DNA from: Deltaproteobacteria bacterium
GTDB taxonomy: Bacteria > Myxococcota_A > UBA9160 > JAJDAL01
Reading direction: 5' to 3'
NCBI GenBank assembly: GCA_029261875.1
Contig: JAJDAL010000033.1
Coordinates: 143,830-207,829, forward strand
Length of the DNA stretch: 64,000 nucleotides
Under the pieces are notes generated by a model. The model had not been told where the DNA came from. It did not search any database and saw nothing but the letters and a program-made list of their open reading frames with translations. Positions 10,632 to 58,436 of this stretch are shown here, piece after piece (within the stretch, counting starts at the first letter, position 1; every line of letters starts with the position of its first letter). The translations under genes and the position numbers were made by a program.

Positions 10632-10633
10632 CC

Positions 10634-16833: not shown

Positions 16834-16880
16834 CTTTCGTGGGCACGGTCGAGGTTGACGGGTTCAGGAGGCTGAGCGAA

Positions 16881-38328: not shown

Positions 38329-38407
38329 GCGGATACCTCGCGCCCCTGGCGTGAATGAAGCCGGACTAGATTATCATCGCTGGCTGAACACGCACTCGAG
38401 GCCGTTC

Positions 38408-39166: not shown

Positions 39167-40118
39167 TCGTTTCCAATTCGTCGCGCAGATTCGACCATTC
39201 GGCCCGATAGCGCGCCCGTAGACCTTCCATCTCCTCGGCCAGGCGTTCCGATTCGACTTCCAACACTTGCAGCGCTTGCGCAATGCCGCGCTGGGTGTTG
39301 TCTACGTGAAGGGTTCCCGCGCTGAAGAACGAACGCAACAGGGGCGTATCCGAAGTGATCAAGGGTTTCCCCAGGTCAAGCGCCTCGCAGCCACCGCGTT
39401 GCATGGTGTTTTCCTGGGTCGTCAACGCCATGACGGCATCCGCCCCGCGCAACAATCCCAGGTAGCGGGCATCGGGCAAGAAGCCCGTGAGTTCGACGTT
39501 GGGGGGAAGCTGCGCGAGTTCCTGGAGCGTGGATTCCGACGCGTCCCCGGTGATGTGGAATCGGATATGGGGCACGGACTTCGCGGCCCGAAGCAATTCG
39601 CCGAGGGGTTCGTCGGGCGCCCAGGAGGCGATCACCGCAACGTTGCGCGCCCCGGACAACGCGAGGGGCTCACCCGGCGGAAGTCCGACGGGAATGTCGG
39701 GAACCCTCAGTGCAACGCCTCCCCAACTTTCCACCAACCGCGCATGCGCCTCATTCGTGACGAGGGTCGCCGCGGCGGCGCGCGAGAGCCGCGCATGCAA
39801 GGGGAACGACCAGCGCCACACGGGCCCTTGTAGCGCCGTCGTGTGGGAATCGATCAGAAACGTCGCTCCGCGCAGCGCGGAATAGAGGTAGACCGCCAAC
39901 GGCGCGAAGATGGGCGGATTCTGCACGAACACCACCGGGGGTCGGTCCCGCCACAGTCGCCAGAATGTCCGAACCCATTGCGCGCAATAGCGCACTGGCG
40001 TGGGAAGCCGGCGCGAGTTCGCGATCGGGTGCATCTTCAACCCGAACGCTTTCGCGAACAATTGCCCCCGGCGGCTGTAGGAAATCCAGGCGACGAATGC
40101 GCCGCGGAATTCAGCCAC
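39141..40118 (-). CDS. glycosyltransferase (GT-B fold, GT4-like C-terminal half)
   Basis: GTG 40118 overlaps the end of the upstream gene by 8 nt; the track ORF extends to 40274. C-terminal pattern ...ALTTQENTMQRGGCEALDLGKPLITSDTPLLRSFF is the EX7E-type nucleotide-sugar binding region. Confidence 0.6.
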   Translation of the reverse strand: MAEFRGAFVAWISYSRRGQLFAKAFGLKMHPIANSRRLPTPVRYCAQWVRTFWRLWRDRPPVVFVQNPPIFAPLAVYLYSALRGATFLIDSHTTALQGPVWRWSFPLHARLSRAAAATLVTNEAHARLVESWGGVALRVPDIPVGLPPGEPLALSGARNVAVIASWAPDEPLGELLRAAKSVPHIRFHITGDASESTLQELAQLPPNVELTGFLPDARYLGLLRGADAVMALTTQENTMQRGGCEALDLGKPLITSDTPLLRSFFSAGTLHVDNTQRGIAQALQVLEVESERLAEEMEGLRARYRAEWSNLRDELETIIRAARGS

Positions 40119-42601: not shown

Positions 42602-44034
42602 GCGCTGCTTTCCGCCCGTCGCGCGCGAAGGCGTTCCGTCACGATGCACCCGAACAATCCGAACGCGATGGTCTTGATGGACTGGTGGTTCAACACGGAC
42701 GCCAAGGCGGGCAAAACCATGGCGACGCCGAGACAAGCCAACAGCGCCAGGAGTGCGGAGGCGCCGTTTCCCTCCGATGTTCGCAAGCCACGCCACGCCG
42801 CGAAGAACGGAATCGCGAGAAAGAGGATGTAGGGAAGCAGCAGAACCAACCCGCCATCGACGAGAATTTGCAGGTAATCGCTCTCTACACTGCGATAGGG
42901 CTTGTGATCCTCTCCGGCGTAATAGTCTTGCGCCCTCCGACTCGACTCACCGTACCCCCATCCCAAGAAGGGTTTCTCGGACCACATGCGGACCGCTCCG
43001 ATCCAACGGGGAATGCGGTCGTGTAGGGTGGCGAGCTTGTGGGTCACCCGTTCCCACAGTGACTCCGACGCCGATGAGACCGCCGCAGGGCCGGGCACGG
43101 AAGCTTCTTTCTGGGGTTCCGAAACGCGTTCGGGCCTGGCGATTTCGGGCGCATCCATCGAATCCGACTCCGCCTGTGGCTGCCCAGGAATCTCTGCGAG
43201 TAGAAAGCCTGCCAGCGCGATGCCGAGCGCCAAAGAAATCAACATCCGAAATCGGACTCGCCCAAAGAACCACATCGCCAGAGCGATTTCCAGCAAGCAG
43301 GCAATCCACGCCGTGCGACTGAAGGTCAGGACCAGAGCGCAGGCCATCAAACCCACGGCAGCCACCAGCCCATTGCTTTGAAGGGCGCTGCCCCCGCGTT
43401 GCATGAGATAGAAACCGAGCGGAACCCCGAACAGCATGACGCGGGCGAAGTTCCCGGAACGACCCATCACACCTTGCAACAACCACAGGCTTTGGTCGCG
43501 GTCGTGATAGAGCGGCGCCGGCGTCCCGAAGGACGGTTTCAGCCAAACATGCTGTGTTTCCGCTTCCAAGATCGCATACAACGCCAACACGACCGCGAGG
43601 GCGACAACCGACGCGAAGACCCAATGCAGTTCGCGCGAATCGCGAATGAAACTTCGACCGAAGAAATAGCTGGCCAGCGGCATACCGAGCAGGGTAACGG
43701 CGCGCTGGGCCGCATCGCTGTCCACGGCCCGCGGCAGAAAGACCACCAGAACGAACAGCGTCATCAGCGCGAACCCATCCATGCTCTGCAATCCGGAGCG
43801 CAGGAGCCCGTCCGAAGCGCGAACCTCGCGCGCCACGAACGCGATCGCCAACCCCGCGGTCAGGGCGCGGCTGAAGCTCAAGTCCGGGATGCCGGCCCCC
43901 AACCCGAAGTGGAGAAAGAGTTCGGCGAATGGCGTCACACTCAGCAAAGCGATGAAGCCCAGAACGGGCCGAAAGAGGCCGAGCAATGCAACGAGCAGCA
44001 GCGCAATGCCGGCGACGAGATTCGATAGATCCAT
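42598..44034 (-). CDS. second Wzy_C-type membrane protein
   Basis: Start taken as ATG 44034, 2 nt after the upstream stop; the track ORF extends to 44088. Polytopic. LTFSRTAWIACLLEIAL and a periplasmic loop, then SVESDYLQILVDGGLVLLLPYILFL. It deviates from the usual H-N motif. Confidence 0.62.
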   Translation of the reverse strand: MDLSNLVAGIALLLVALLGLFRPVLGFIALLSVTPFAELFLHFGLGAGIPDLSFSRALTAGLAIAFVAREVRASDGLLRSGLQSMDGFALMTLFVLVVFLPRAVDSDAAQRAVTLLGMPLASYFFGRSFIRDSRELHWVFASVVALAVVLALYAILEAETQHVWLKPSFGTPAPLYHDRDQSLWLLQGVMGRSGNFARVMLFGVPLGFYLMQRGGSALQSNGLVAAVGLMACALVLTFSRTAWIACLLEIALAMWFFGRVRFRMLISLALGIALAGFLLAEIPGQPQAESDSMDAPEIARPERVSEPQKEASVPGPAAVSSASESLWERVTHKLATLHDRIPRWIGAVRMWSEKPFLGWGYGESSRRAQDYYAGEDHKPYRSVESDYLQILVDGGLVLLLPYILFLAIPFFAAWRGLRTSEGNGASALLALLACLGVAMVLPALASVLNHQSIKTIAFGLFGCIVTERLRARRAESSA

Positions 44035-44035
44035 C

Positions 44036-45073
44036 TCAGTTTCGCCGCCGCACGGACGCGAGACCGCGCACGAGCGCGTATCCGACACGACTTACGGAGA
44101 ATCGCATGGGAGACGGGACATGGAGATGGCGACCGAAGTCGTGTTGCGCGCCACCGAACTTCGCCTTGAAGTCGCGCACGCCGTACGGTTTGTCGGGGTG
44201 GCCCGCGCCTCCGAAATCGTAGACCGAATAGCCGTTGCGCGCGCCCCAATCGAGAATCTCCCAGGTAACGGCCTCGGTGGGTTGGAAAGACGAAAATTCG
44301 CGGTCGGTTCCACCGTACCAGCCGTAGATCTCGTCTTTGAAACACAACTCCGCTCCGCAGGCCGCGGGTAGTCCATCGACGAGAGCAAGGTTGAAGCGCA
44401 CGTGGCCGAGGGGCAGGAGTTCCCGAAGCGCCGATTCGAAAAGCGCTCGGGGAGCCATCGGAACCCGCGCCTGCCGATAGGTAGACTGAAGCGGCGCGTA
44501 CCAGGCGTCGAGTTCCGACAGATCCCGAATTTCGCGCACTTCGAGTCGCGGATCCCGCAGACCGCGACGAATCCCCTTCCGGACGCGCTTCCCCATTCCT
44601 TGGAGAATTTGCTCCGCAGGATCCTTCAGGCACAACCGGTAGGTCAGGTGCGGTTCGAATCGGAATCCGGCGTGTTCGAGGACACCCGACACATCGGGGC
44701 AAGCCGATTGATGGCGGACTTCGGAGAATACGGCGTCGCGCGCCGTCGACACGAGGTATTCCCCGAGTACGTGCGCGAGCGCTCCCATTCCGTTCGCGCC
44801 CGGTGCAGCGAGCAGACCACCGTAGTGGAGCAGGCGCGTGGTGAGGCTCGGAAAAAGACCGCCGCCCACCTGCACGGCAACCGGGGTGAGGAGAGCCAGG
44901 GGCGTTCCCGCCGAATCCGTCGCGGCCCAAAGATGCGGCGTGTAACCCGGCACGCTGGAGAAGACGCGGAACATCTCCGGTGTGTGAAAGATGTTGCCCC
45001 CGGGGACCGAATCGACGAAGGCCCGCCAGACCGCTTCATCGAGCTTCCGCACAACCTTCATGGAAGCTTCCAA
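44036..45073 (-). CDS. FemAB-like / GNAT-fold acyl- or aminoacyl-transferase
   Basis: 345 aa. MKVVRKLDEAVWRAFVDSVPGGNIFHTPEMFRVF... at the N-terminus and TWEILDWGARNGYSVYDFGGAG...YGVRDFKAKFGG at the C-terminus match the FemAB-family pattern seen in polysaccharide loci. Confidence 0.6.
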   Translation of the reverse strand: MEASMKVVRKLDEAVWRAFVDSVPGGNIFHTPEMFRVFSSVPGYTPHLWAATDSAGTPLALLTPVAVQVGGGLFPSLTTRLLHYGGLLAAPGANGMGALAHVLGEYLVSTARDAVFSEVRHQSACPDVSGVLEHAGFRFEPHLTYRLCLKDPAEQILQGMGKRVRKGIRRGLRDPRLEVREIRDLSELDAWYAPLQSTYRQARVPMAPRALFESALRELLPLGHVRFNLALVDGLPAACGAELCFKDEIYGWYGGTDREFSSFQPTEAVTWEILDWGARNGYSVYDFGGAGHPDKPYGVRDFKAKFGGAQHDFGRHLHVPSPMRFSVSRVGYALVRGLASVRRRN

Positions 45074-45281
45074 TACGGGGGATAAATCGAATTCGACACA
45101 GTCAGTTGCGGCCTTCAGTTGCGCATTGCATCAAGCGCCCGCCTGCGCTTCCCTATTCTCTTCCCGAGGCAACCCGTAGTAAGGTACCGAACTCGGGAAT
45201 ATCGGAGCCCGCTCGCCCAGGCGCGGCGAACCTTTCATCGACCCATGCGCTTGGTCCGAAGCTAGGAAAGTTGGCAGACCG

Positions 45282-45971
45282 TTGGCATTGCATCAGTTCA
45301 TCAAGCGATCCCTTGAGATCATCTTTTGCTTGGTCCTACTTCCCGTCTCACTCGCGGTTGGAATCTGCATCGCCCTGGCGATTCTTCTCGACACGGGTCG
45401 GCCCATTTTTTTTTCCCAACGCCGCGTGGGATGGAAGGGTCGATCGTTCCGGCTTTACAAGTTTCGCACACTCACCAGCGTCGAATCGGTTCCGGATTCG
45501 GAACGCGAATACATGCGCTCCTATGTTCGCGGCGAACTGAACGCCGACGAAGACTTCATCTTCCAACCCTATGATGACTCGCGAACGACCCGATTGGGTC
45601 GTTTTCTACGCGATTCCGGCCTCGACGAATTGCCCCAGCTATGGAATGTGCTCCGGGGGGAGATGAGCTTGGTGGGGCCGCGCCCCCATGTTCCGTGGGA
45701 GGTCGACGAATACCTGGACCATCACCACCGAAGACACGAAGTCCGACCGGGCATTACGGGCCTCGCCCAGGTTCGCGGTCGCAGCAACATCCCGTTCGAG
45801 CGCGCCGTAAGGTACGATCTCGATTACATCGACAACCGCTCTATCTGGCTAGATCTGCAGATCGTATTCGAAACTCTCGGCCAAGCCCTGGGTTCGAATC
45901 GCGATTCCGATCGCAGAGACGAAACCGATGGAGTGGTCGGCGCGCAAGTCTCGAGCTCGCGGGAAAACTAG
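45282..45971 (+). CDS. polyprenyl-phosphate sugar-phosphate transferase (small bacterial sugar transferase, WbaP C-terminal type)
   Basis: 229 aa, TTG start. [58 protein letters not shown]. Confidence 0.85.
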
Positions 45972-46077
45972 GCGTCTGATCCGGGCTTGTGCCTCTCGAG
46001 GCGCAGGTGGTTCTTCTCCATCGTTTCCCTTCAAGCATCGCTGCGCATCCCGGGGGTTCCCGTTGGCCCGGCACTGC

Positions 46078-47247
46078 ATGGTGGTCCACGCCTACTATCC
46101 GTTTGGCGAAACGCGCGTCCAGCGCCAAGCCGAAGCGCTCGCGGAGCGCGGCTACGAGGTCGATGTGATTTGCCTGCGCGGTCCCGGTGAGGCCCGGCGC
46201 GAACGCGTCAACGGGGTCGACGTGATCCGTGTACCCACCAAGCGGTTCAGTCGCAGTGCGGCACTCCAACTCCTGGAGTATCTCGCCTTCTTCCTACTGG
46301 CCGCGTGGGAACTGAACCTTCGGTCCGCGCGCCGAAACTATGCGGTCGTCCAAGTCCACAATCTTCCCGATTTCCTCGTGTTTTCCGCGATCGTCCCGCG
46401 GCTCCGGGGTTCAGCGATCCTGCTCGACATTCACGATCTGATGCCGGAGTTTTTCGCGTCGCGCTTTGCGTCCGGAGCCGACTCGCTGGGGGTGAGGATT
46501 CTTCGCTGGCAAGAACAGCTTTCCTGTCGCTTCGCGGACCACGTCGTCACCGTGACGGAAGCGTGGCGGAAGACACTGATTCGCCGCGGGGTTTCGGAAA
46601 GCAAATCGAGCGTCGTGATGAATCTGGCGGACGATCGCATCTTCCGTCCCTCGAACCCTTCACGCGCTCCGTCCGCAGACGGCGACTTCCAGCTGCTCTA
46701 CCACGGAACACTGACGGATCGCTATGGCATCGACTTGCTCGTTCGTGCCGTTCATCTCTTGAAGGACGAAATTCCGGAACTCCGCTTGACGATCCACGGT
46801 TGGGGCGACGCATTGGCGTCCTTGCGGGCGCTGGCCGCGCAACTGCAGATCGACGACCGAATCGAATTCGACCAGGAACGGCTCGACGTCCCGGACCTCG
46901 CGCGCATGATCGAGGAGGCAGACTTGGGCGTCGTCCCCAATCGCGCGGATCCGTTCACCGACGGGATCTTGCCCACCAAACTCCTCGAATACACCGCCAT
47001 GGGGACTCCCGCGGTCGCCGCGCGTACCTCGGCGATCCAGGAATATTTCGATGACGGCATGGTCGCCCTGTTCGACCCCGGCGATGCGGCGGATCTCGCC
47101 CAACGCATCCGGGAACTCCACGCCGACCGACCGCGCCTGGCCGCGCTTTCGGAAAACGCGGCCCGTTTCAACGAACGCTACTGCTGGCAACGGCAAAGCG
47201 CCGAGTATGCGCAACTCGTCGAACGACTCGGACGTGGAAAGCCGTGA
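46078..47247 (+). CDS. glycosyltransferase family 4
   Basis: Start taken at ATG 46078 (MVVHAYYPFGETRVQRQAEALAERGYEVDVICLR, a typical GT4 N-terminus); the track ORF starts at 45928, inside the previous gene. C-terminal GILPTKLLEYTAMGTPAVAARTSAIQEYF. Confidence 0.75.
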   Translation: MVVHAYYPFGETRVQRQAEALAERGYEVDVICLRGPGEARRERVNGVDVIRVPTKRFSRSAALQLLEYLAFFLLAAWELNLRSARRNYAVVQVHNLPDFLVFSAIVPRLRGSAILLDIHDLMPEFFASRFASGADSLGVRILRWQEQLSCRFADHVVTVTEAWRKTLIRRGVSESKSSVVMNLADDRIFRPSNPSRAPSADGDFQLLYHGTLTDRYGIDLLVRAVHLLKDEIPELRLTIHGWGDALASLRALAAQLQIDDRIEFDQERLDVPDLARMIEEADLGVVPNRADPFTDGILPTKLLEYTAMGTPAVAARTSAIQEYFDDGMVALFDPGDAADLAQRIRELHADRPRLAALSENAARFNERYCWQRQSAEYAQLVERLGRGKP

Positions 47248-47897
47248 CATGGCGGGCCGCCCTGCTGGGCACAACGGACCGGATTCGCGATCTCCAGACG
47301 ATTCTCGCTCGCGAGGGGTGGGCGCACGGCATTCGACGATCGCTCCGAGAAGTGGTCCCCCCGCTGTTTCGGCGCACGGACTACGTCTTCGTCGCAGCCG
47401 ACGTGAACGACGTACGGATCGGATCCAGCGGGGACTTTCGCGGAACGGTCCGAACCGCCACCTCGTCTGATCTGCCGCGTTTTGGAAACATCGCGACGCC
47501 GTCCCAGATGCGGCAGCACGCGACCCGGTTTTCCCGTCGACAGGTCTGCCTGATCGCAATCGAGGGGGACCGATTGGCGGGCTATTGCTGGGGAACCCAG
47601 CACGTGGATCCGATCCTCGAAGGTCTTCCCGTAACGCTCGCTCCCGGCGACATCCTGATCGCGTATCTGTTCGTCGCTGAGGAATTTCGCAAACGGGGCG
47701 TCGCGCACCGTTTACTCGAAGCGCTCAAGCAATACGGGGAGAACCGGAAGCTCCGGCGTACCGTCGGTACGGTGGATGCACTCAACTACGCCTCGCGTGC
47801 GCTGCTGGAGGCCACCGGGCACCGCGAAATCGGCCGCGGAACCTACAGGCGGATTCTGTGGCACCGGTCGTTCCGCATGCTCGAGGACGGTTCCTGA
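47244..47897 (+). CDS. GNAT family N-acetyltransferase
   Basis: 217 aa. The GTG start overlaps the upstream stop (GTGA). Acetyl-CoA motif LFVAEEFRKRGVAHRLLEAL. Confidence 0.6.
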   Translation: MTWRAALLGTTDRIRDLQTILAREGWAHGIRRSLREVVPPLFRRTDYVFVAADVNDVRIGSSGDFRGTVRTATSSDLPRFGNIATPSQMRQHATRFSRRQVCLIAIEGDRLAGYCWGTQHVDPILEGLPVTLAPGDILIAYLFVAEEFRKRGVAHRLLEALKQYGENRKLRRTVGTVDALNYASRALLEATGHREIGRGTYRRILWHRSFRMLEDGS

Positions 47898-47898
47898 G

Positions 47899-49233
47899 GT
47901 GAGCGCCGAAAAAGCCCCGTCCGCACTCTTCCAACTCGCGGTTCGCGGATCGGCGTTTACGACCGTGGGCCTGGCGATCGAACAGGGCCTGCGTCTCGGC
48001 GGAAACCTGATCCTGACGCGCCTCCTCTTCCCGGAAGCCTTCGGGTTGATGAGCCTGGTATCCGTGGTGCTGACCGGCCTCGAACGGCTCTCGGAAGTCG
48101 GTATCCGCCAGAGCATCATTCGCAGCGAGCGCGATGACGCGGACTACCTCAATACGGCGTGGACCCTGCAGATCCTTCGGGGGATCGCGCTCGCCAGCCT
48201 CGCGATGTTGGCCGCGGGCCCGGTGGCCGATTTCTACGGTGCACCCGAATTGGCCGGGTTGATCGCCGTTGCCGGTTTGGCGGCCGTCGCGGGTGGCCTC
48301 GCCTCGACGCGACTCTTCACCCTCAATCGCCAGCTCGCCTTGGGACGACAGACCGCAATCGAGATCGGCAGTCAACTGTGCAGTCTCGCGCTCATGGTCG
48401 TTTGGGCATTGCTCGATCCCAGCCCGACGGTGTGGATCCTGGTCGCCGGCCCGCTCACCGGGAGTGTGATCCGGGCCGTTCTGACCTACATCGCCGTTCC
48501 GGGCATCCGCCAACGATTGCGTTGGGAACCCCGCGCGGCGCACTCCCTCCTCCACTTCGGAAAATGGTTGATCCTCACCAGCGCGGTGAGCTTCCTCGCC
48601 ATGCAGGGCGATCGCTTGCTGCTGGGTCGACTCGTGTCCGTGGAATTTCTGGGGATCTACAGCATTGCCCACTTCGTGAGTGACGCGGCCTCCCAGGCCG
48701 TGCGCCGCATCTCTCAGCGCGTCCTCTATCCCGCCTTCGGCGAAATCGCCCGCAACCAACCCGACGCGCTCGCTGCGGTCTATTGGCGCGCTCGACGCTA
48801 CCTCGACTTGTCGATTCTCCCGGCGGCCTCCGTGCTCGCCTTTGCGGGCGGACACTTGATCGAATTTCTCTACGACGATCGCTACATCGAAGCGGGCTGG
48901 ATGCTGCGGATCCTATCGGTGCGCATCGCCCTGAGCTCGATCCTTCCGCCGGCCAACATGTGTCTGCTGGCGCTCGGAAACCCGCGCTACAACCTGGTGG
49001 GGAACGTCGCCCGGGCCGCGTGGGTGTTCGTCGCGCTGCCCCTCGGTTTCGAATTCGCGGGAATGACGGGTGCCGTGATCGCCATCGCGGCCTCGGACGC
49101 CGCACGCCTACCCTTTCTGTGGTGGGGCCTTCATCGCTACGGCCTACTCTCGCTGCGGCGCGAACTGTTGCGACTCTGCTGGATCCCCGCCGCGGCGCTG
49201 CTCGCCGGACTCGGTTTCAGCGTCGACGGCTAA
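47899..49233 (+). CDS. Wzx-type oligosaccharide flippase (MOP superfamily)
   Basis: GTG 47899 lies 1 nt after the GNAT stop; the track ORF starts at 47776. N-terminus ...GSAFTTVGLAIEQGLRLGGNLILTRLLFPEAFGLMSLV plus about 12 predicted TM helices. Confidence 0.7.
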   Translation: MSAEKAPSALFQLAVRGSAFTTVGLAIEQGLRLGGNLILTRLLFPEAFGLMSLVSVVLTGLERLSEVGIRQSIIRSERDDADYLNTAWTLQILRGIALASLAMLAAGPVADFYGAPELAGLIAVAGLAAVAGGLASTRLFTLNRQLALGRQTAIEIGSQLCSLALMVVWALLDPSPTVWILVAGPLTGSVIRAVLTYIAVPGIRQRLRWEPRAAHSLLHFGKWLILTSAVSFLAMQGDRLLLGRLVSVEFLGIYSIAHFVSDAASQAVRRISQRVLYPAFGEIARNQPDALAAVYWRARRYLDLSILPAASVLAFAGGHLIEFLYDDRYIEAGWMLRILSVRIALSSILPPANMCLLALGNPRYNLVGNVARAAWVFVALPLGFEFAGMTGAVIAIAASDAARLPFLWWGLHRYGLLSLRRELLRLCWIPAAALLAGLGFSVDG

Positions 49234-49276: not shown

Positions 49277-50785
49277 TCAGGGAAGCATCGGACCCGCGGA
49301 GGCTTCCATCAGCCGAGAATAGAACGCCACCGCCCGGGGAAGGGATGCGACGGGCACGCGTTCGTTGAGACCGTGGGCGCGCTGGAGCGTTTCGCGTTGC
49401 ACCTCGATCGGCGTCAGCCGATACACCGAGTCCGTCAACCGATGAAAGAACCGCGCGTCGGTACCGCCGGTGGAGAGCGCCGGGATCAACACGGCTTCCG
49501 GAAACCGCTCCGCCACGGTTCGCTGAATCGTCGAGAAAGCCGCGGAGTCGATCCGCGACACGGGGCTTGGACCGCGGGGTTTCGAGCGCGGCAGAATCCG
49601 CACCTCGACCCGGTCGTCGTCAACGGTTCGCACGACGTGTTTCCGAACCCCCTCGACGGAATCGCCCGGCAGGATTCGGTGGTTCACGACGGCCCGCGCC
49701 TCCTGGGGCACGACGTTCGCCTTGACGCCGCTTTGCAGGATCGTCACCGCGGTCGTGGTTCGCGCGAGCGCATCGATGACCCGGTCCTGGGCGACGAAAT
49801 ACCGCAAGGGCGTTTCGAATAGCCAGAGATTCCCCAGCACGAGACGCGGTCCGAACGGGAGTTCCGGGGCCAGAAAGTCGAGGGTGAGCCGCACGGTCCC
49901 GCCCAGATTCGCAGGCATCGGGTTGCCTTCCAGCCGTACGACCGCAGCCGCCAGAATTCCCGCGGCCGTATTTCTCGGGGGCACCGAGGAATGCCCGGCC
50001 GTGCCGCGCGCGATCAGCTCGAAGCTCACGGACCCCTTTTCGGCGATCACGAGCGGGGCCAGGGTCCGGTCCAGAATCGAGAGTCCGTCGACGAGAAAAC
50101 CGCCTCCTTCGTCGAGCACGTACTCGAGTTCGACGCCCCGCGACTCCAACAGCGCAACGGCCGCCTCCGCTCCAACGCTCTGAACTTCCTCATCGTGCCC
50201 GAGGAACAAATAGAAACTTCGATCCGGATGGAAACCGCGCTCGATCGAGCGTTCGATCGCCTCCAACATGCAGATGATGTCGGCTTTGTCATCGATCGCT
50301 CCCCGACCCCAGATGAAGCCGTCTCGAATTTCTCCGCCGAAGGGCGGATAGATCCACTCGCTCGCACTGGCGTCCTCGATCGGGACGACGTCCATGTGCC
50401 CCATCCACAGCACGGGTCGCAGCGAAGGATCGCGGCCGGGCCAGGTGAAGAGCAGGGACAGATCCGCCACGGTCTCGCGCTCGAGGGTGGCGTGCACTGC
50501 CGGAAAGCTGCGTTCCAAGTAGGCGTGAAACGACCGAAAGACCGCGGGGTCCATGCGTTCGGTCTCGCGGTAGCTGATGGTGGGAAAGCGAAGACTACCG
50601 GCCAGTCGCTCGGTCAGTCCATCGGTGTCGATGGTAAGGCGGGGACCGGGCGGTACCCGGAGCTGTTTGGAGGTGAGCGGTGCGGCCCGGACGAATAGAA
50701 CCGCGACCAACAGTCCCAGCGCACCCACGACCCCGATTCCGAAACGACGCATCGCGTTCCTCCGCCCCGAGCCCGAGCCCGGCAA
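49277..50785 (-). CDS. M20 family metallopeptidase (carboxypeptidase-like), exported
   Basis: 502 aa. Signal/anchor MRRFGIGVVGALGLLVAVLFV. WMGHMDVVPIED and WGRGAIDDKADI metal-binding motifs. Confidence 0.8.
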   Translation of the reverse strand: MPGSGSGRRNAMRRFGIGVVGALGLLVAVLFVRAAPLTSKQLRVPPGPRLTIDTDGLTERLAGSLRFPTISYRETERMDPAVFRSFHAYLERSFPAVHATLERETVADLSLLFTWPGRDPSLRPVLWMGHMDVVPIEDASASEWIYPPFGGEIRDGFIWGRGAIDDKADIICMLEAIERSIERGFHPDRSFYLFLGHDEEVQSVGAEAAVALLESRGVELEYVLDEGGGFLVDGLSILDRTLAPLVIAEKGSVSFELIARGTAGHSSVPPRNTAAGILAAAVVRLEGNPMPANLGGTVRLTLDFLAPELPFGPRLVLGNLWLFETPLRYFVAQDRVIDALARTTTAVTILQSGVKANVVPQEARAVVNHRILPGDSVEGVRKHVVRTVDDDRVEVRILPRSKPRGPSPVSRIDSAAFSTIQRTVAERFPEAVLIPALSTGGTDARFFHRLTDSVYRLTPIEVQRETLQRAHGLNERVPVASLPRAVAFYSRLMEASAGPMLP

Positions 50786-50797: not shown

Positions 50798-52618
50798 CTA
50801 GCGAAGCTCGTTCACACGCGGGGGTGTCGCGACATCGGGAAGAGACGCGTGGGGATCGATCGCAAAGTAGAGCAGATTTCCATCCTGGCTCTCGAGGACC
50901 GGTGCCCCCAGACGGGCTTCGAGCGCGTGTGCGAGCGAGCGCCCTCGATCCTCGAACCCCCGGCGATCGAGTGCGACCCCGGAGAATTCCTTCTCGGCAA
51001 TCGACGCCAGGAAGGCATCCGGTTCCAATCCGGTCACCCGTCGATGCCAGGCGTCATCGCGCCCCTTCATGGCACCATGGCTCCAGGAAAGCGAATGCGA
51101 ATGCAGCGCCACCCGGAAATGGGTATAGGGCGAGAGATCGTGCAGATGGCGCGCTTCCGGAGTCTCGATGAAGGGAAGCTGAAAGATGCGGGCTCCCGGG
51201 TAATCGGATTCGATGTGATCGACGAAGGCCCGGTCGGATTCGAATCCGCTGCGTATCTCCGCGCTGTCGATGGAGTCCGGAAAGTCGAAGGAGTTGGGAT
51301 AGCGCTGGTCGTAGACGCCAATCACCGCGACCAGAACACACAGCGGCACGTAGAGCCAGGCGCGCCGGTTGCGTGTGACGATTCGCGATAGTTCCGCGGC
51401 GACGAAGGTCAGGGCGAACAACCCGATCAAGACACTCAGTCTCGACCAAACTCGAAACTGAGACGTCACGGTCGCGGCGAAGAGCACCCCGAGCCCCCCG
51501 ACCGTCGCGAACAGGAACGCGGCGACGTTCAGTTGCGCCAATCGATCGACGAGCGTTCCCACGTTGCGGCGCCGACCCAACACCACCAGCAGGCCCAAGA
51601 AGCCCAACGCGCCCACCAACCCCAGATACGTCGGACCGTGGGGTTGATTGGGCAACGCGTCCCAATATTGCGCTGCCATTCGGTTCAGGATCTCGAAACC
51701 CGACCAGTGGGGCAGTACGAGATGCGTGAGCTTCAGCGCGTACGCCTCGGATTCGATCGGGGAGCGCGCTGCCGTCACCGGATTGCGACCGTGGCTCGCC
51801 CAGTACAGGATTGATGGCAACACGTTCAAGATGAGCGTCACTCCAATCGCCCCACACACCGCCGCGCTGGCGCGAATCCGCGAAGCGCGTCCGGATCCGC
51901 CAAACAGAAGATCCGAGCTCGCCATCACGCACAGCAGCAAGACGCTCCAGAAAGCGAAGTAGGCCCCCGCAGAACCCAGCAGCACGCCGAACAGAAGCAG
52001 CCCGAGCATGGACCGACGGGTTTGGCCGAACCAGCGTACGGATGCTCCGGCCCCCTCCCCCGCAGCGCGACAGTGGATGTCGTGCACGACGACCACGAAC
52101 AGCGGGAGCAAGAAGTAGGAGGTCTGATGCAGATGCCCGATGTTGACGAGCACGTGGTATGGGAGAAACGCAAACAGCAACCCGCAGACCAATGCCGCGA
52201 GCGGACGAATCCCCACCCGCGAAGCCATGTAGGCGAAGCTGAGACTGCAAAGGGAATAGGTGAGAACGAAATACGCGTTGACCGCGCGAAAGACGTCCCC
52301 GACGAAAACGCCGATCAGGCGCACGATTCCCAACACGAAATTGTCCGGAACGGGGAAATCCCGAAAATCGAAACCGACCGGTGCGCCCAACTGACCCGAG
52401 CGAATTCCGAGGTAGAGGGTCCAGTCTCCATCCAACAAGGTCTTCGACAGCGTCAGATAGACCAGGGCGTCCCACTCGTAACTCAGGGGAATCCCCCAGT
52501 CGATGTCGCGCGCCCCCTCCCATCCCGCAATCACCGCGAGCGGAAGTACCGCGGCCAGCGCGTAGTACGCGACCGTGCGCCAGACAGCTTGGGAACCCAT
52601 TTCGTTCACGCGCACCAC
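50798..52618 (-). CDS. large polytopic membrane protein with a C-terminal soluble domain (GT-C-like architecture; function unknown)
   Basis: 606 aa. About 11-13 hydrophobic helices over the first ~430 aa, then a soluble tail: FQLPFIETPEARHLHDLSPYTHFRVALHSHSLSWSHGAMKGRDDAWHRRV. No family assigned with confidence. Confidence 0.5.
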   Translation of the reverse strand: MVRVNEMGSQAVWRTVAYYALAAVLPLAVIAGWEGARDIDWGIPLSYEWDALVYLTLSKTLLDGDWTLYLGIRSGQLGAPVGFDFRDFPVPDNFVLGIVRLIGVFVGDVFRAVNAYFVLTYSLCSLSFAYMASRVGIRPLAALVCGLLFAFLPYHVLVNIGHLHQTSYFLLPLFVVVVHDIHCRAAGEGAGASVRWFGQTRRSMLGLLLFGVLLGSAGAYFAFWSVLLLCVMASSDLLFGGSGRASRIRASAAVCGAIGVTLILNVLPSILYWASHGRNPVTAARSPIESEAYALKLTHLVLPHWSGFEILNRMAAQYWDALPNQPHGPTYLGLVGALGFLGLLVVLGRRRNVGTLVDRLAQLNVAAFLFATVGGLGVLFAATVTSQFRVWSRLSVLIGLFALTFVAAELSRIVTRNRRAWLYVPLCVLVAVIGVYDQRYPNSFDFPDSIDSAEIRSGFESDRAFVDHIESDYPGARIFQLPFIETPEARHLHDLSPYTHFRVALHSHSLSWSHGAMKGRDDAWHRRVTGLEPDAFLASIAEKEFSGVALDRRGFEDRGRSLAHALEARLGAPVLESQDGNLLYFAIDPHASLPDVATPPRVNELR

Positions 52619-52825
52619 TCCTTCGGGCGTTCATTGCCGGTCGGCTGCGAGCGCGTGTGGCTTTAGGGTGAGGCACAACCCCCCCGCCCATCGGCGCGCA
52701 GCACCGCGTTTCACCAACCCGCAATGGAGATGATGCGAGGCACTCCAACTGCGCGATTTTCATCTTAAAGCGCCGCCATACCCCATCCGATAAGCGGGAG
52801 ATCACTTTTCTTAGGGGGGAGCGCG

Positions 52826-54439
52826 TTGGCTCCGGAGAACACCTGGTCGCGAATTTCAGCCGGACGCCCGCACACGGGCGGTTCGAAATCCGTTGCGCTC
52901 GTCATTCCCCCCTCCCCGTTCCTGTTGGACGAGCGCGTATTCGTAAGCTTGGGCGTCCTCAAGGTGGCGGCCTCGCTGCGCGCCAGTGGGCACGACGTGC
53001 GCGTGCTCGACCTTTCGGGAATCGAAAATTACCTCGACACGCTGTCCCACTACTTGCGCAACCATCACGACGACGCGATTGGGATCACGACCACCACACC
53101 GCAGCTACCGGCCGCGATCGCCATCGCAAAGACCATTCGCGAACAGTCGCCCCAGGTCCGAACCGTGCTCGGCGGTCCCCACGTCACCCTGACGTACGCA
53201 GCGGTGAAGCTCGAGCAGAAACGCGGAATCCAGGGCGGTCGAGCCCAAGCGGGCGCCAGCCGCCTCGAAACGGCGGTAGACGTCCTGTGTCCCGGAGATG
53301 GCGAACTCGCCATGTTGCAGGCGCTGTCCGACCGCTGCCCCAAGGTGATCGACGCGGACGATCCCCGGGGTCCGTACTTCCTTACGGATGAGATGTTCAC
53401 CAAGAGCCCGCGGCCGGCGCGCGACCTGGTCGACATGAATTCCTACCACTACGAGATCGAAGGTCATCGCGCCACGAGCTTGATCGCCCAACTCGGGTGC
53501 CCCTTCCAATGCGGTTTCTGCGGAGGTCGCAACAGCAAGAGCTTGCGGCTGATCCGAAAGCGTTCCAGTGAATCGATCGTGCGCGAGATCGAGCACCTGC
53601 ACACGCAATACGGTTACACGGGTTTCATGTTCTACGACGATGAGCTGAACGTGAATCGCCAGCTGGTACCGCTCATGAATCAGATCTCCGACCTCCAGCA
53701 GCGGCTGGGCACGGAGTTTCGACTGCGCGGATTCGTGAAATCCGAACTTTTCGACGCGAGCCAGGCCGAAGCCATGGTGCGCGCGGGTTTTCGCTGGCTC
53801 CTGTGTGGATTCGAAGCGGCACACCCGCGCATCCTGAAGAACATCAACAAGCGAGCCACCATCGACGACAACACCCGCTGTGTCGAAATTGCCAAGCAAC
53901 ACGGACTCAAGATCAAAGCGCTGATGTCGTGTGGCCATCCGGGAGAAACTGCGGAATCGGTGCAAGCGATTCGCGATTGGTTGATTCGAAGCGAAGTCGA
54001 CGACTTCGATTGCACGATCATCACCACCTACCCCGGCACTCCGTACTACGACGAGGCGGTTCCCCACGTCGCAATGCCCGATGTCTGGACCTATTCGAAC
54101 CCCATCACCGGAGACGCACTGCACAGCCGCGATCTCGACTTCACGAAGACCGCCGACTACTACAAGGGCGATCCCAGTGGCGGGTACCGCGCTTTCGTGT
54201 TTACCGACGAGCTTTCCTCCGAGGAACTCGTCGAACAGCGCGATGCATTGGAAACCGAGGTCCGCGAAAAGCTCGACATCCCGTTCAATCCCGCGCGGGC
54301 GGCCTTGCGCTACGAACATTCCATGGGCCAGGGGCTGCCGGATTTCATCCTGCGAGGGGTCAAGAAGTCGCCCGCGGAATCCAAGACCACGCAGGGTTCG
54401 ACGCCGGCGCACCCCGGCCTGCCGTTCGTAAGCCGTTGA
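52826..54439 (+). CDS. B12-binding-domain radical SAM protein (class B)
   Basis: 537 aa, TTG start (uncertain). N-terminal cobalamin-binding-type Rossmann region (VALVIPPSPF...HDVRVLDLSG...IGITTTTPQLPAAIAIAKTIRE). CxxxCxxC cluster in AQLGCPFQCGFCGG. Confidence 0.85.
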   Translation: MAPENTWSRISAGRPHTGGSKSVALVIPPSPFLLDERVFVSLGVLKVAASLRASGHDVRVLDLSGIENYLDTLSHYLRNHHDDAIGITTTTPQLPAAIAIAKTIREQSPQVRTVLGGPHVTLTYAAVKLEQKRGIQGGRAQAGASRLETAVDVLCPGDGELAMLQALSDRCPKVIDADDPRGPYFLTDEMFTKSPRPARDLVDMNSYHYEIEGHRATSLIAQLGCPFQCGFCGGRNSKSLRLIRKRSSESIVREIEHLHTQYGYTGFMFYDDELNVNRQLVPLMNQISDLQQRLGTEFRLRGFVKSELFDASQAEAMVRAGFRWLLCGFEAAHPRILKNINKRATIDDNTRCVEIAKQHGLKIKALMSCGHPGETAESVQAIRDWLIRSEVDDFDCTIITTYPGTPYYDEAVPHVAMPDVWTYSNPITGDALHSRDLDFTKTADYYKGDPSGGYRAFVFTDELSSEELVEQRDALETEVREKLDIPFNPARAALRYEHSMGQGLPDFILRGVKKSPAESKTTQGSTPAHPGLPFVSR

Positions 54440-55461
54440 GTTCGACCCCGACTTCCTTGGGAAGGCTGCACTCCTCGGCTGTCGATTCGGCCCCCGCGGC
54501 GCGCTATGCCATCTTGATTCCGGTCTACAACGATTGGGGCCCGCTGCGCACGGTCATGCGCGAACTCGATGCGGTGCTCGCAGACAAAGGCCTCGAGGCC
54601 GACTTATTGATCGTCAACGATTGCTCCAGTGACGTTCGCGAAGATCAACACTTCGCAGCCGACTGGAAGGCCCTGCGAACGATCCGCGTCCTGGAACTCC
54701 GGCGCAACATCTCGAACCAACGCGCCGTGGCCGTTGGGCTCACCTACCTCTACGAAGAAGCCCGCTATCGCGGCGTGCTCTTGATGGACGGAGATGGCCA
54801 AGACAACCCGGCCGACGTTCCCCGCTTGATCGAAGCCTTCGAGAAACACGATGCCCAGCGCTGTATCTTTGCGGAACGCACCAAGCGCAAAGAAGGTATG
54901 TTCTTCCGCGTGGCCTACCGGGCCTTTACGGCCCTGCATCAGCTACTCGTCGGCCCGCGGCTTCGAATCGGGAACTTCGGAATCGTTCCCTTCGAACTGC
55001 TCAAGCGCGTCGTAGTGTCACCGGAACTCTGGAGCCACTACGCCGCGACGGTCATTCATTCGCGAATCCCCTTGGAAACCATCTCCACGACGCGTGCCCA
55101 ACGCGTGGCGGGTGAATCCAAGATGCGTTTTACGGATCTCTTTCTCCACGGCTTGCGCGCCATCGCGGTCCATACCGACTACGTGAGCGTGCGCTTGTTG
55201 TTGATGATCGGGGCCGTCTCCGCCTTGCTGGTCGGTGCACTGATCGCCACCGTGGCGATTCGAATGTGGACGGACCTCGCCATCCCGGGCTGGGCGACCA
55301 ACGCCGGTGGGCTTTCGTTGATCGCCCTGGCGCAGAGCTTCATCATCGGCTTGTTGCTCGTATTCGGGACCGTCAATGCCCGCCAACTTTCGAGCTTCCT
55401 ACCGATCCGCGATTGCCCGTACTTCATCGACTCCGTCGATCAGGTGTTCCCCAACCCGTGA
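54436..55461 (+). CDS. GT2 polyprenyl-phosphate glycosyltransferase (GtrB/ArnC/DPM1-like) with two C-terminal TM helices
   Basis: Candidate TTG 54436 overlaps the radical-SAM stop (TTGA); the track ORF starts at 53803, inside that gene. YAILIPVYNDWGPL...LLIVNDCSSD, LLMDGDGQDNP. C-terminal helices LLLMIGAVSALLVGALIATVAI and GGLSLIALAQSFIIGLLLVFG. Confidence 0.72.
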   Translation: MSSTPTSLGRLHSSAVDSAPAARYAILIPVYNDWGPLRTVMRELDAVLADKGLEADLLIVNDCSSDVREDQHFAADWKALRTIRVLELRRNISNQRAVAVGLTYLYEEARYRGVLLMDGDGQDNPADVPRLIEAFEKHDAQRCIFAERTKRKEGMFFRVAYRAFTALHQLLVGPRLRIGNFGIVPFELLKRVVVSPELWSHYAATVIHSRIPLETISTTRAQRVAGESKMRFTDLFLHGLRAIAVHTDYVSVRLLLMIGAVSALLVGALIATVAIRMWTDLAIPGWATNAGGLSLIALAQSFIIGLLLVFGTVNARQLSSFLPIRDCPYFIDSVDQVFPNP

Positions 55462-56177
55462 CGGTGGCGGGGGACATCGAATACCTGAGCGAAGATCTCC
55501 ATATCTTTCGCCACGCACGCCATTGGAAGCGCTACTTCGCGCGCCAGCTGCGTCCCTTTCTCGGGCGCTCCGTCCTCGAGGTGGGTGCGGGCCTCGGCGC
55601 AACGACCCAGATGCTCTGCCCAGCCGACACGGATCGCTGGCTCTGCCTCGAACCCGACGCGGACATGGCGAACACCCTGGAGGCCTCTCGCCGCCGCGGC
55701 GACCTACCCTCCTGCTGCGTCACGCGGCACGGCACCGTGGCAACCGTCCCGGAGGATGAGCGCTTCGACACCATTCTCTACATCGACGTGTTGGAACACA
55801 TCGAAGACGATCGGGGCGAACTCACAAAGGCCCTCGCGCACCTGCAACCCGGCGGACGCATCGTCATTCTCGCCCCGGCACACCAGACCTTGTTTTCCCC
55901 ATTCGACGAAGCCGTCGGACACTTTCGTCGCTACGACCGCCGTTCCCTGCGGGCCGCCATACCGGCGCCGCTGCGCCAAGAAAAACTGATCTACTTGGAT
56001 TCCGTCGGGTTGTTGGGATCCTTGGGCAACCGCGTCCTTCTGAAATCCCGAATGCCGACCCTGCGTCAGATTCGCGTCTGGGACAATCTCATGGTTCCCG
56101 CATCAACGATCGTCGATCGCGTGACCGCGCATCGGTTGGGAAAATCGATCCTCGGCGTCTGGAGAGCTCCGGAATAA
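55458..56177 (+). CDS. class I SAM-dependent methyltransferase
   Basis: GTG 55458 overlaps the GT2 stop (GTGA); the track ORF starts at 55266. SVLEVGAGLGATTQML (motif I), ILYIDVLEHIED, LQPGGRIVILAP. Confidence 0.7.
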   Translation: MTVAGDIEYLSEDLHIFRHARHWKRYFARQLRPFLGRSVLEVGAGLGATTQMLCPADTDRWLCLEPDADMANTLEASRRRGDLPSCCVTRHGTVATVPEDERFDTILYIDVLEHIEDDRGELTKALAHLQPGGRIVILAPAHQTLFSPFDEAVGHFRRYDRRSLRAAIPAPLRQEKLIYLDSVGLLGSLGNRVLLKSRMPTLRQIRVWDNLMVPASTIVDRVTAHRLGKSILGVWRAPE

Positions 56178-56387: not shown

Positions 56388-56801
56388 ATGCATTTCTTCT
56401 TCGAGGTCTACGAACAAGCTGGATCCTTGTACGTCGAAACTGCACTACCCGGCATTGCCCGCCACGAGATCGAGCTTTGCGGACGCGACACGGCGCTCGT
56501 GATCTGCGTTCGGCGTCGGGTGTCGGAATCTCCCCGACGGATCCACTATTCGCGGGGCGTTCCCGTACCCGAGGAATTCCAGCGGGAGATAGCGCTGCCC
56601 CATCCAGTCGAATTTTCGTCCGCCGAGGCCTCGCTTCACGCGGGAATCCTTCGTGTGTGTTTTCCCGATCGGAAACCGAAGCAAGCCTCCCGGGTAGGGA
56701 TTGCGGTCGGTGGGTTGCGCTCGCGAAGAGGACGATCAGGCGCTGCGAGCGGGATTTCGAGAAGAGGTTCGCACCCGGGCGACGGAACGCGCGGGCTCTA
56801 G
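56388..56801 (+). CDS. Hsp20/alpha-crystallin-domain small heat-shock protein
   Basis: 137 aa. FEVYEQAGSLYVETALPGIARHEIELCGRDTALVICVRR...REIALPHPVEFSSAEASLHAGILRVCFP follows the ACD pattern. The C-terminal ~40 aa is low-complexity and overlaps the convergent gene by 66 nt. Confidence 0.6.
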   Translation: MHFFFEVYEQAGSLYVETALPGIARHEIELCGRDTALVICVRRRVSESPRRIHYSRGVPVPEEFQREIALPHPVEFSSAEASLHAGILRVCFPDRKPKQASRVGIAVGGLRSRRGRSGAASGISRRGSHPGDGTRGL

Positions 56802-58181
56802 CGAATCGATTTCGTCCGCGAGGTGGTGTTTTCGAATGCGGTAGCCCAGGGTACGACGCGAGATTCCGAGCAGGCCTGCGGCGTGGGTCTGGTTGCCCCC
56901 CGTCTTCTTCATGGCGTTCAGGATGCTGCGAATTTCGAGGGCTTCCAGCGTGGCGGCCTCTTCTCCCACCGCCTCTGCGGTTACGCGCGAAAGGGCATGA
57001 TCTTGAATCGCCACCGGGAGATCGCAGACGTCGATGTTTTCTCCCTCGCGCATGACCAGCGCGTGTTCGACGGCGTTGTGGAGCTCGCGAATGTTTCCCG
57101 GCCAGTCGTAACTCGTTACGGCTTGCCAGGCTTGCGCTGAGAAACCCGGACGAAACCCCGGGTTCAACTCGTCGAGAAAGCGCTCGATCAAGGGGGCGAG
57201 ATCGTTCGTCCGCTCGCGCAGCGGAGGAAGCGGAAGAGCGACCACGTTCAACCGATAGTAGATGTCCTCGCGAAACGCACCGCGCTGAACGGCCGCTTCG
57301 AGGTCCCGGTTCGTCGCAGCGATGATCCGCACGCTGACTTGATGCGTTCTTCCCGCTTCACCGACCCGGTGGAATTCCCCTTCCTGAAGGACCCGAAGCA
57401 ACTTCGGTTGAAGGTTCAAGGGAAGTTCTCCGATCTCGTCGAGAAAAATCGTCCCGCCGTCGGCCACCTGAAACAACCCGGGACGGTCGCTGTCCGCCCC
57501 GGTATAGGCGCCGCGCACGTGCCCGAACAATTCGGCTTCCAACAGGGTTTCCGGCAAGGCGGCGCAATTCACCTTCACGAACGCGCGATCGCCGCGGCGG
57601 GAGAGCCGATGCAGCGCATTGGCGATGATCTCTTTCCCGGTACCCGTCTCGCCCAGCAGAAGCACCGTAGTCCCGGAGCGACCGATGCGCGGAAGCTTGT
57701 GGAGCAAATCGTCCATGACGTCGGATTTGGCGACGATGTCGTCGACGCGAAACGGCTCGTGGTCGGAGGTCACGCGCTTGAGGGGTGGGCGGTCCATATG
57801 CTCACTTTCGTGAGGCGAGGCTTCGAGAATCCCGCGAATCAACGGTTCGAGGTGTGAATTCGCCATGGGCTTGGCGATGAAGTCGACCACACAGCGCTTG
57901 AGGGCGTCGCGCGCCATTTCGACGGTTTCTTCACCGACCACGAGGACGATCTCACAGCGGGGGCGAATGGCGCGCGTACGGCGCATCAATTCGATCGCGT
58001 ACGCGTCGGGACGTTTCAGGTCGAGCACGACGATGTCGAAAGGACGATCGATCAACAGTCGCAAGCCGCCATCGGCATCGTGCGACTGTTCTACTTCCAA
58101 TCCGTCCGCGCGAAGCGCACGCACGAGTTCCCCAACGGGGTGGGGATCCTCACCAATGATGAGGATCGAGCCGCGCACCAT
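56736..58181 (-). CDS. sigma-54-dependent response regulator (NtrC family: REC + AAA+ + Fis-type HTH)
   Basis: Start taken as ATG 58181 (GAGGGGG upstream), giving MVRGSILIIGEDP; the track ORF extends to 58250. Receiver DIVVLDLKRPD. Walker A LLGETGTGKE. GAYTGA (GAFTGA variant). EAELFGH. C-terminal AAGLLGISRRTLGYRIRKH. Confidence 0.88.
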   Translation of the reverse strand: MVRGSILIIGEDPHPVGELVRALRADGLEVEQSHDADGGLRLLIDRPFDIVVLDLKRPDAYAIELMRRTRAIRPRCEIVLVVGEETVEMARDALKRCVVDFIAKPMANSHLEPLIRGILEASPHESEHMDRPPLKRVTSDHEPFRVDDIVAKSDVMDDLLHKLPRIGRSGTTVLLLGETGTGKEIIANALHRLSRRGDRAFVKVNCAALPETLLEAELFGHVRGAYTGADSDRPGLFQVADGGTIFLDEIGELPLNLQPKLLRVLQEGEFHRVGEAGRTHQVSVRIIAATNRDLEAAVQRGAFREDIYYRLNVVALPLPPLRERTNDLAPLIERFLDELNPGFRPGFSAQAWQAVTSYDWPGNIRELHNAVEHALVMREGENIDVCDLPVAIQDHALSRVTAEAVGEEAATLEALEIRSILNAMKKTGGNQTHAAGLLGISRRTLGYRIRKHHLADEIDSLEPARSVARVRTSSRNPARSA

Positions 58182-58436
58182 CGACTGACCCCCTCGGACC
58201 CGAAACGCTGGGCTTTCCCAGAAGGCTCTGGTCCGGCGTAGAGCCTCCACCCATTATGCTCCTTCGAGAAGGCTGCATTCAACATGCCAATTCCTAGGGG
58301 CACGAGCGCTCAATGCGATCGCGTGGCTGGACGTTTTGCTCCAGTGGGATTCGTTCTGGTACACCGCACCGGTTCCTGTGGGGACGGAGTCATCGAGTTG
58401 CACCCGCGGGGATCGAACTTTCGCTTTGTTCGCGGG

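Follow-up and report, generated by a model that had tools for sequence, protein, structure and literature searches.

Here we describe four genes in a 64,000-nucleotide stretch of DNA (the window) from a Deltaproteobacteria bacterium (GTDB lineage Bacteria; Myxococcota_A; UBA9160; JAJDAL01), which corresponds to positions 143,830 to 207,829 of contig JAJDAL010000033.1 (GenBank assembly GCA_029261875.1), has a GC content of about 62% and may encode an extracytoplasmic glycosylation system. On the minus strand lies the gene for a candidate polytopic membrane glycosyltransferase of the GT-C fold (50798..52609, 603 aa), separated by a divergent intergenic region of about 216 bp (52610..52825) from three plus-strand genes. 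These encode a class-B radical S-adenosylmethionine (SAM) enzyme with a B12-binding domain (52826..54439, 537 aa), a GtrB/ArnC-type family 2 glycosyltransferase (GT2; 54436..55461, PF00535) that is a putative polyprenyl-phosphate sugar synthase, and a class I SAM-dependent methyltransferase (55458..56177, 239 aa). This layout was first proposed from the DNA letters alone (the original prediction), and the open reading frame (ORF) positions agree with it. The overlap motifs that were said to chain the plus-strand genes, TTGA at 54436-54439 and GTGA at 55458-55461, are real, with the start codons of the GT2 and the membrane protein amended as follows.

The start of the GT2 is ambiguous and lies either at 54436 (341 aa) or at the next TTG, 54457 (334 aa). 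The latter is the start called on a public contig of identical sequence (L088), and the shorter N-terminus aligns better with homologues. The junction between the radical SAM gene and the GT2 gene is accordingly a 4-nt overlap, or a 17-nt gap if the GT2 starts at 54457. The methyltransferase start at 55458, where GTGA overlaps the GT2 stop, is the same in the independent call on L088. For the membrane protein, the sequence makes GTG 52609 (603 aa) a more likely start than 52618 (606 aa); AAGGAG is found 8 nt upstream of this GTG, and the NCBI copy of the protein (P0001) also has 603 residues and begins there. No terminator-like site was found between the three plus-strand genes and, given this and their tight packing, it is reasonable to regard them as an operon with either GT2 start. 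The divergent intergenic region yielded no sigma-70-like promoter, and no Rfam family, including riboswitches, was detected there or near the operon. It holds a sigma-54-like AGGCACtccaaCTGC at 52738-52752 (+), a candidate that we set aside because matches of that quality occur in the window at chance frequency (55 observed, 51 expected). The TTG start of the radical SAM gene at 52826 is preceded by GGGGGGAG.

The GT2 had been assigned the DPM1/GtrB/ArnC layout, and this is borne out by full-length homology to ArnC, GtrB and DPMS that includes the C-terminal membrane helices. Its best matches in the PDB are ArnC (8vxh, E 5e-15, residues 13-314), GtrB (5ekp, E 1e-8) and DPMS (5mlz, E 8e-4). The two C-terminal hydrophobic helices, at about residues 243-270 and 283-305, align to the transmembrane region of ArnC, and the motif DGDGQD aligns to DADLQN of the same enzyme. 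Against the NCBIfam models it scores 57.7 bits for ArnC (profile positions 7-287 of 316) and 44 bits for PgfS. The ArnC score is far from the equivalog cutoff of 529 (NF007986), which rejects the GT2 as a true ArnC, and by its sequence it is best described as ArnC/GtrB-like. The product of the last plus-strand gene carries class I methyltransferase domains (Methyltransf_12/23/11/25, Pfam).

The divergent membrane protein was thought to have the architecture of an enzyme that transfers lipid-linked sugars outside the cytoplasm, and its predicted fold agrees with this. An AlphaFold2 model built from a 31-sequence alignment is confident (pLDDT 86.9, pTM 0.89), and in a Foldseek search of the PDB its top 22 matches are all GT-C structures (probability 1.0, TM-scores 0.45-0.53), among them STT3, AglB, AftA, AftD, DPY19, ArnT and PMT. 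A crude hydropathy scan finds 11 hydrophobic segments, and the model has about 13 helices before residue 440, followed by a C-terminal alpha/beta domain of periplasmic type at about residues 450-596. Two aspartates, D50 and D87, lie in the first loop between helix 1 (residues 9-32) and the next transmembrane helix; they are at least 90% conserved in the 31 sequences and invariant in the nine closest. They would thus be the conserved acidic residues that GT-C enzymes carry in the first extracytoplasmic loop, with a putative catalytic role. R389 and R393 are invariant in the alignment. The donor is putatively a polyprenyl-phosphate-linked sugar, a proposal based on the divergent GtrB/ArnC-like GT2.

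At the sequence level, this protein has no match in Pfam, NCBIfam or the PDB. DUF6311 (PF19830), YfhO (PF09586) and PMT_2 (PF13231) do not match the window protein or its close homologues even at E<=10, and membership of DUF6311, suggested by precomputed weak matches, was not reproduced by the model search. Weak profile-sequence similarity was seen between the family and a DUF6311 protein (E 0.0025, 104 columns) and between the family and a YfhO-like protein (E 0.002, 398 columns). By profile search, the family comprises 4661 representatives at 50% identity for E<=1e-30, or 12757 for E<=1e-3; only 54 members were found in a word-indexed search. Many of its members (P0002, P0004, P0006 and others) carry the JGI label 'phosphoglycerol transferase'. 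We reject this label since no sulfatase/OpgB-type domain was detected and the fold is GT-C, and for the same reasons it looks like an annotation error that has spread through the family.

The first plus-strand gene was predicted to encode a class-B (cobalamin) radical SAM enzyme, and the B12-binding domain (PF02310, 53.2 bits against a cutoff of 32.1), the radical SAM core (PF04055, 79 bits), the CxxxCxxC cysteines C225/C229/C232, invariant in the alignment, and the fold matches all support this call. Its fold is nearest to those of TsrM, AprD4, MgmA, CysS, TokK and OxsB, with TsrM and AprD4 the best, and AprD4 is also the best sequence match in the PDB (E 3e-17). The named NCBIfam equivalogs tried (BchE, HpnJ, HpnR, PhpK, AprD4, ApyD, MgmA and others) are all rejected by scores far below their cutoffs, the best being BchE (109.7 bits vs. 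481) and HpnJ (101 vs. 578). The nearest structural relatives are methylases (TsrM, MgmA, TokK, CysS) and the sugar dehydratase AprD4, which has the same architecture and, going by its PDB title, is non-methylating. The enzyme is most likely a C-methylase, with cobalamin binding and methyl transfer predicted, and its product would then be a C-methylated sugar. The family numbers more than 4500 proteins at E<=1e-30, is 60-70% identical across phyla and is found in Alpha-, Beta-, Gamma- and Deltaproteobacteria, Planctomycetota, Acidobacteriota, Elusimicrobia, Omnitrophota and others; a plasmid collection held no homologues.

How far these genes belong together was assessed by neighbourhood scans, each of which covers the best 80 loci only. 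Seen from the GT2, in 80 metagenomic loci with orthologues of 34-45% identity (of at least 551; many of the contigs are short), a methyltransferase orthologue lies directly downstream in 40 of the 53 loci whose contigs leave 700 nt or more for one. Of the 39 loci flanked by 2 kb or more, 26 encode a polytopic protein (>=380 aa, >=6 transmembrane segments) within 3 kb, and its gene often starts between -15 and +47 nt from the methyltransferase stop. These polytopic partners come from different families, including PMT_2 (54 bits), DUF6311 (231 bits) and several that match no model; the window GT-C family is present in none of the 80 GT2 loci. Sugar genes, GDP-mannose 4,6-dehydratase among them, are repeatedly found near the GT2 orthologues. 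The conserved core is a GT2-methyltransferase pair with an interchangeable polytopic partner. The four-gene unit of the original prediction therefore stands in part: the pair is kept with a polytopic partner, but the four families are not a conserved unit, and the neighbourhood check that the prediction had called for found all four together in neither the 80 radical SAM loci nor the 80 GT2 loci.

The view from the radical SAM enzyme comes from 80 species-representative loci, the best 80 of at least 291 species representatives. Its immediate neighbours (113 neighbours in the 80 genomes) are mostly sugar genes, including GT2 (15), epimerase/dehydratase (9), class I methyltransferase (7), GT4 (5), GT41, GT61 and FkbM (4 each) and YfhO (3), and no partner is fixed among the loci. 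Window-GT2 orthologues occur in six of the 80 (L023, L032, L037, L056, L057 and L072), window-methyltransferase orthologues in seven or eight, and all three families together in four; the radical SAM enzyme thus joins the GT2 and/or the methyltransferase in about six to nine of the 80 genomes, a recurrent but rare addition to the GT2-methyltransferase pair. In L032, L037, L043, L056, L057 and L072, the radical SAM gene and the GT2 and/or methyltransferase are accompanied by large polytopic proteins, and those in the GT2- or methyltransferase-containing loci measure 491-728 aa, have 6-11 hydrophobic segments and in some cases match PMT_2 or YfhO weakly. The possibility that the polytopic partners in these or in the GT2 loci are distant homologues of the window GT-C protein was tried by BLASTP, hidden Markov model searches and hhalign, and was dropped as unconvincing (best matches E 3e-4 to 2.5e-3, over partial regions). 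By identity analysis, the radical SAM copies of L037, L056, L072 and L043, all with GT2 and/or methyltransferase-type partners, form a mutual-best subgroup, whereas the window and L032 copies fall among alphaproteobacterial copies that lack such partners. The association is therefore seen in three or more distinct parts of the radical SAM family.

Two of these loci carry further genes of interest. In a metagenome-assembled genome of the Hyphomicrobiales, L023 holds two paralogous B12-radical SAM/GT2/methyltransferase triads back to back (12593-15915, minus strand; 8893-12536, plus strand), adjoining NeuB- and PseB-like nonulosonic-acid genes. At L032 (12512-16399, minus strand), a short-chain dehydrogenase/reductase, a FAD_binding_4 oxidase and a 613-aa protein with 11 transmembrane segments lie beside a methyltransferase-radical SAM-GT2 operon. 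The first two resemble a DprE2/DprE1 pair, which suggests that the L032 pathway epimerises a polyprenyl-phosphate sugar.

For the GT-C family, whose alignments offer no conserved stretch of 7-10 residues for locus retrieval, the contexts come from nine single look-ups. A radical SAM homologue was found beside a family member nowhere but in the window among the loci examined, and three of the nine contexts are orphan genes. The GT-C homologue of L082 occurs with GtrA (called on a second contig, from Logan, that bears the same GT-C protein), two methyltransferases, an epimerase-GT2 fusion and a split transketolase, and that of L170 follows a PMT_2 GT-C and has GT2 and methyltransferase genes in its vicinity. 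L081 (5658-13667, plus strand) has a run of GtrB-like GT2, TylC3-type C-methyltransferase (Methyltransf_13/14), GT-C homologue, methyltransferase and GT-C paralogue, preceded by nucleotide-sugar genes (a nucleotidyltransferase and two dehydratase/epimerases). Since the TylC3-type enzyme sits between the GT2 and the GT-C homologue there, branched or methylated sugars are suggested as a theme for this family. Planctomycete loci contain arrays of GT-C paralogues with an epimerase or FkbM. In the planctomycete loci L083, L084, L085 and L172, GT-C paralogues share a conserved neighbourhood of glutamate dehydrogenase, a lysine-2,3-aminomutase-like radical SAM gene and two D-Ala-D-Ala-ligase-like genes.

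In the window, the four genes lie at the edge of a Wzx/Wzy-type exopolysaccharide (EPS) cluster (35143..49233, from Pfam and NCBIfam matches), and from this context the EPS pathway is likely to supply the acceptor. The cluster encodes a sulfatase-like protein, UDP-glucose dehydrogenase, a sulfotransferase, three GT4s, two Wzy_C proteins, a FemAB-like protein and a Wzx flippase; the latter, a MOP-family protein (47776-49233), is the sole flippase-like gene nearby. The putative polyprenyl-phosphate sugar synthase and the GT-C protein are thus encoded together, as a divergent pair (50798-55461), near a glycan cluster at 35-49 kb. At 35143-39166, a sulfatase/phosphoethanolamine-transferase-like protein and a sulfotransferase-family protein adjoin the UDP-glucose dehydrogenase, a hint that the polysaccharide is acidic and bears sulfate or other substituents. 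Between the EPS cluster and the GT-C gene, 13 nt downstream of the latter and on the same strand, is an M20 family peptidase/deacylase gene (49277..50785, minus strand; NCBIfam PRK08262, 431 bits). It was considered as a sugar deacylase partner and rejected, being beside none of the nine GT-C family contexts examined, and probably stands outside the system.

Beyond the methyltransferase, a small HSP20-family gene (56388-56801, plus strand) precedes a sigma-54-dependent response regulator (56736..58250, minus strand; Sigma54_activat 226 bits, Response_reg, HTH_8) that is convergent with the operon and scores 319 bits against the PEP-CTERM-box regulator model (cutoff 503). This is a possible candidate regulator of the operon. 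A sigma-54-like GGGCACgcgggATGC is present at 56322-56336, where again matches of such quality are at chance level in the window. Elsewhere, the window contains a full-length tmRNA gene (26574-26937, minus strand; RF00023, 166.8 bits), a 1557-aa protein with DUF6701 (30492-35165, minus strand) and a 1344-aa protein with PKD domains (22371-26405, plus strand). A 10-kb stretch at about 10000-20000 has lower GC (0.56-0.58 vs. 0.61-0.68 in adjacent blocks) and positive AT skew, and is possibly a horizontally acquired island.

Taking the four genes together, we lean, with modest confidence, toward a Gtr/Arn-type extracytoplasmic glycosylation system attached to the EPS cluster. To judge from its full-length homology, the GT2 would work on the cytoplasmic side of the membrane and charge undecaprenyl phosphate with a sugar taken from a nucleotide sugar. 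The co-translated methyltransferase and radical SAM enzyme would tailor the sugar, either as the nucleotide sugar or while lipid-linked, the latter by analogy with ArnD, DprE1/E2 and HpnJ, and in this step the methyltransferase would be the conserved partner and the radical SAM enzyme an optional extra. A flippase would then carry the donor across the membrane, and the divergent GT-C protein would transfer the sugar to a periplasmic acceptor, which the context makes most plausibly the adjacent Wzx/Wzy polysaccharide. The system would probably deliver a methylated sugar to that polysaccharide, with the chemistry putative. In favour of this reading are the GT-C fold of the membrane protein with its first-loop aspartates, the homology of the GT2 to ArnC, GtrB and DPMS, the GT2-methyltransferase pair with its polytopic neighbours, the recurrence of the radical SAM gene beside such partners, the gene sets of L023, L032, L081 and L082, the sugar genes that dominate the radical SAM neighbourhoods and the EPS cluster itself. 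ArnD and HpnJ provide precedents for the editing of a lipid-linked sugar, the substrate of HpnJ being of this kind. DprE1/E2 together with a phosphatase step provides another for editing a sugar on polyprenyl phosphate (PMC11127046). A more specific version, in which both SAM enzymes act on the undecaprenyl-phosphate monosaccharide made by the GT2, giving an O- and C-methylated (branched) donor that is installed on the polysaccharide by this unclassified GT-C family, is in our view rather doubtful.

Several observations weigh against a Gtr/Arn-type system of this composition. The exact four-family combination was found in the window genome only: the radical SAM enzyme occurs in none of the 80 GT2 loci and the window GT-C family in none of the 80 radical SAM loci. 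Neither the GT2 nor the methyltransferase accompanies the closest relatives of the radical SAM enzyme (67-69% identity), some of which are orphans. No GtrA/SMR-type flippase is encoded in the window, where a hydropathy scan detected no small multi-transmembrane ORF anywhere. Activity, donor sugar and acceptor are putative for all four families, and the gene calls and transmembrane counts at the comparison loci are crude, being ORF- and hydropathy-based. Additionally, given its extreme conservation and its GT2-less, in part orphan, closest relatives, the radical SAM enzyme may have a substrate that is common and soluble, and may work without the GT2.

This last point leads to an alternative that we regard as unlikely but deserving of serious attention, namely that the radical SAM enzyme is uncoupled from the GT2, the methyltransferase and the GT-C protein, alters a soluble nucleotide sugar, or some other common metabolite, that feeds the adjacent polysaccharide pathway, and owes its place upstream of the GT2-methyltransferase pair to the mosaic shuffling typical of glycan loci. 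Its 60-70% identity across phyla amid very variable neighbours, its orphan state in Rhodoplanes, its absence from all 80 of the GT2-methyltransferase loci scanned and the closeness of the window copy to copies without a GT2 are consistent with this. However, the gene is co-directional and tightly packed with the GT2, with no terminator between them, partners of the GT2 and/or methyltransferase type recur in L023, L032, L037, L043, L056, L057 and L072 on separate branches of the family, and L023 even has a second paralogous triad. The tight packing in the window and the repeated triads elsewhere speak for a functional link between the radical SAM enzyme and the GT2.

If the same system is accepted, its acceptor could instead be lipid A or its core (ArnT-like) or periplasmic or surface proteins (PMT/PglB-like), which we find improbable. 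The fold matches of the GT-C protein do include ArnT, PMT, STT3 and DPY19, several members of its family are orphans or far from polysaccharide clusters, and the GT41 and GT61 neighbours of the radical SAM gene hint at protein glycosylation in some loci; however, the window genes abut the Wzx/Wzy cluster, and no WWD-type or other acceptor-peptide motif was identified, with no search aimed at such motifs having been made. It is very improbable that the plus-strand trio makes a methylated glycolipid end product, on the model of hopanoid HpnI/HpnJ or a glycosyl-carotenoid, with the GT-C protein an unrelated neighbour, since, although HpnJ ranks second among the named models that match the radical SAM enzyme, and despite the GT-C gene being on the other strand and of a family never seen with the radical SAM elsewhere, HpnI/HpnJ membership is ruled out by the scores (101 bits vs. 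578 for HpnJ; no HpnI match to the GT2), the window ORFs scanned include no hopanoid or carotenoid genes, and polytopic proteins, some of them recognisable GT-Cs (PMT_2), directly follow the GT2-methyltransferase pair in most loci with enough flank.

The original prediction did not recognise the combination as a described pathway, and our literature searches turned up none either. Full-text searches returned nothing on DUF6311, and no link between B12 radical SAM enzymes and O-antigen, EPS or GtrB-type systems came up. Among known systems, we class the locus, as a variant, with the three-component periplasmic glycosylation systems, recently reviewed and extended to include pentofuranose systems and GT136 (PMC11127046). 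Like the Gtr-type systems (GtrA/GtrB/Gtr*; CsbB/GtcA/YfhO; GT136, PMC11127046), it has a GtrB-like GT2 with C-terminal transmembrane helices, a GT-C-fold transferase and an adjoining Wzx/Wzy cluster, and the GT-C partner swaps between loci as does the serotype-converting Gtr*. Unlike them, it has no GtrA, SMR or MATE flippase gene nearby, its GT2 is paired with a SAM methyltransferase that is conserved and, in this locus, also with a class-B radical SAM enzyme, and its GT-C family has no Pfam or NCBIfam model. With the ArnC/ArnD/ArnT lipid A aminoarabinose pathway it shares ArnC as the closest sequence match of the GT2 (E 5e-15) and ArnT as a fold match of the membrane protein, and both this pathway and the mycobacterial DPPR synthase/DprE1-E2/arabinosyltransferase pathway are precedents for editing a sugar on polyprenyl phosphate. 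However, the window lacks ArnA, ArnB and ArnD, the ArnC equivalog score is missed (57.7 vs. 529), and the tailoring genes encode a methyltransferase and a radical SAM enzyme in place of a deformylase or epimerase.

Sugar-acting class-B radical SAM enzymes offer a further comparison. GenK/GenD1 carry out aminoglycoside C-methylation, HpnJ the ring contraction of hopanoid-linked glucosamine, and AprD4, which has a B12-domain-like region, is a sugar 1,2-diol dehydratase. The window enzyme resembles them in its N-terminal Rossmann B12-type domain, its radical SAM core and its carbohydrate context, but its family reaches no named threshold, is 60-70% identical across many phyla and resides in cell-surface glycan loci and not in secondary metabolism. 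TylC3-type NDP-hexose C-methyltransferases (Methyltransf_13/14) occupy the equivalent place in L081, between the GtrB-like GT2 and the GT-C homologue; they are unrelated to the radical SAM enzyme in fold and mechanism and are absent from the window.

The decoration of surface polysaccharides in the periplasm is a driver of antigenic diversity and of escape from phages and the immune system, and, to our knowledge, the known decoration systems add plain sugars. The value of this locus lies mainly in tying together three uncharacterised and widespread families: a GT2-methyltransferase pair that travels with interchangeable GT-C partners, a large GT-C family without a database model, and a radical SAM family that is 60-70% identical across phyla and found in glycan loci, each of which is defined here. 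Founding members of such model-less GT-C families have recently defined new CAZy families, for example GT136 (PMC11127046). Should the sugar donor prove to be lipid-linked when the SAM enzymes act, this would be the first monosaccharide donor of that kind tailored by a radical SAM enzyme, the known chemistry of polyprenyl-phosphate sugars would be widened, and rare methylated or branched sugars of environmental bacteria could be identified by a direct route. Together with transfer by the GT-C protein, it would furthermore provide functions for the GT-C family, with its more than 4600 sequence clusters, and for the orphan radical SAM family, which is very large and highly conserved.

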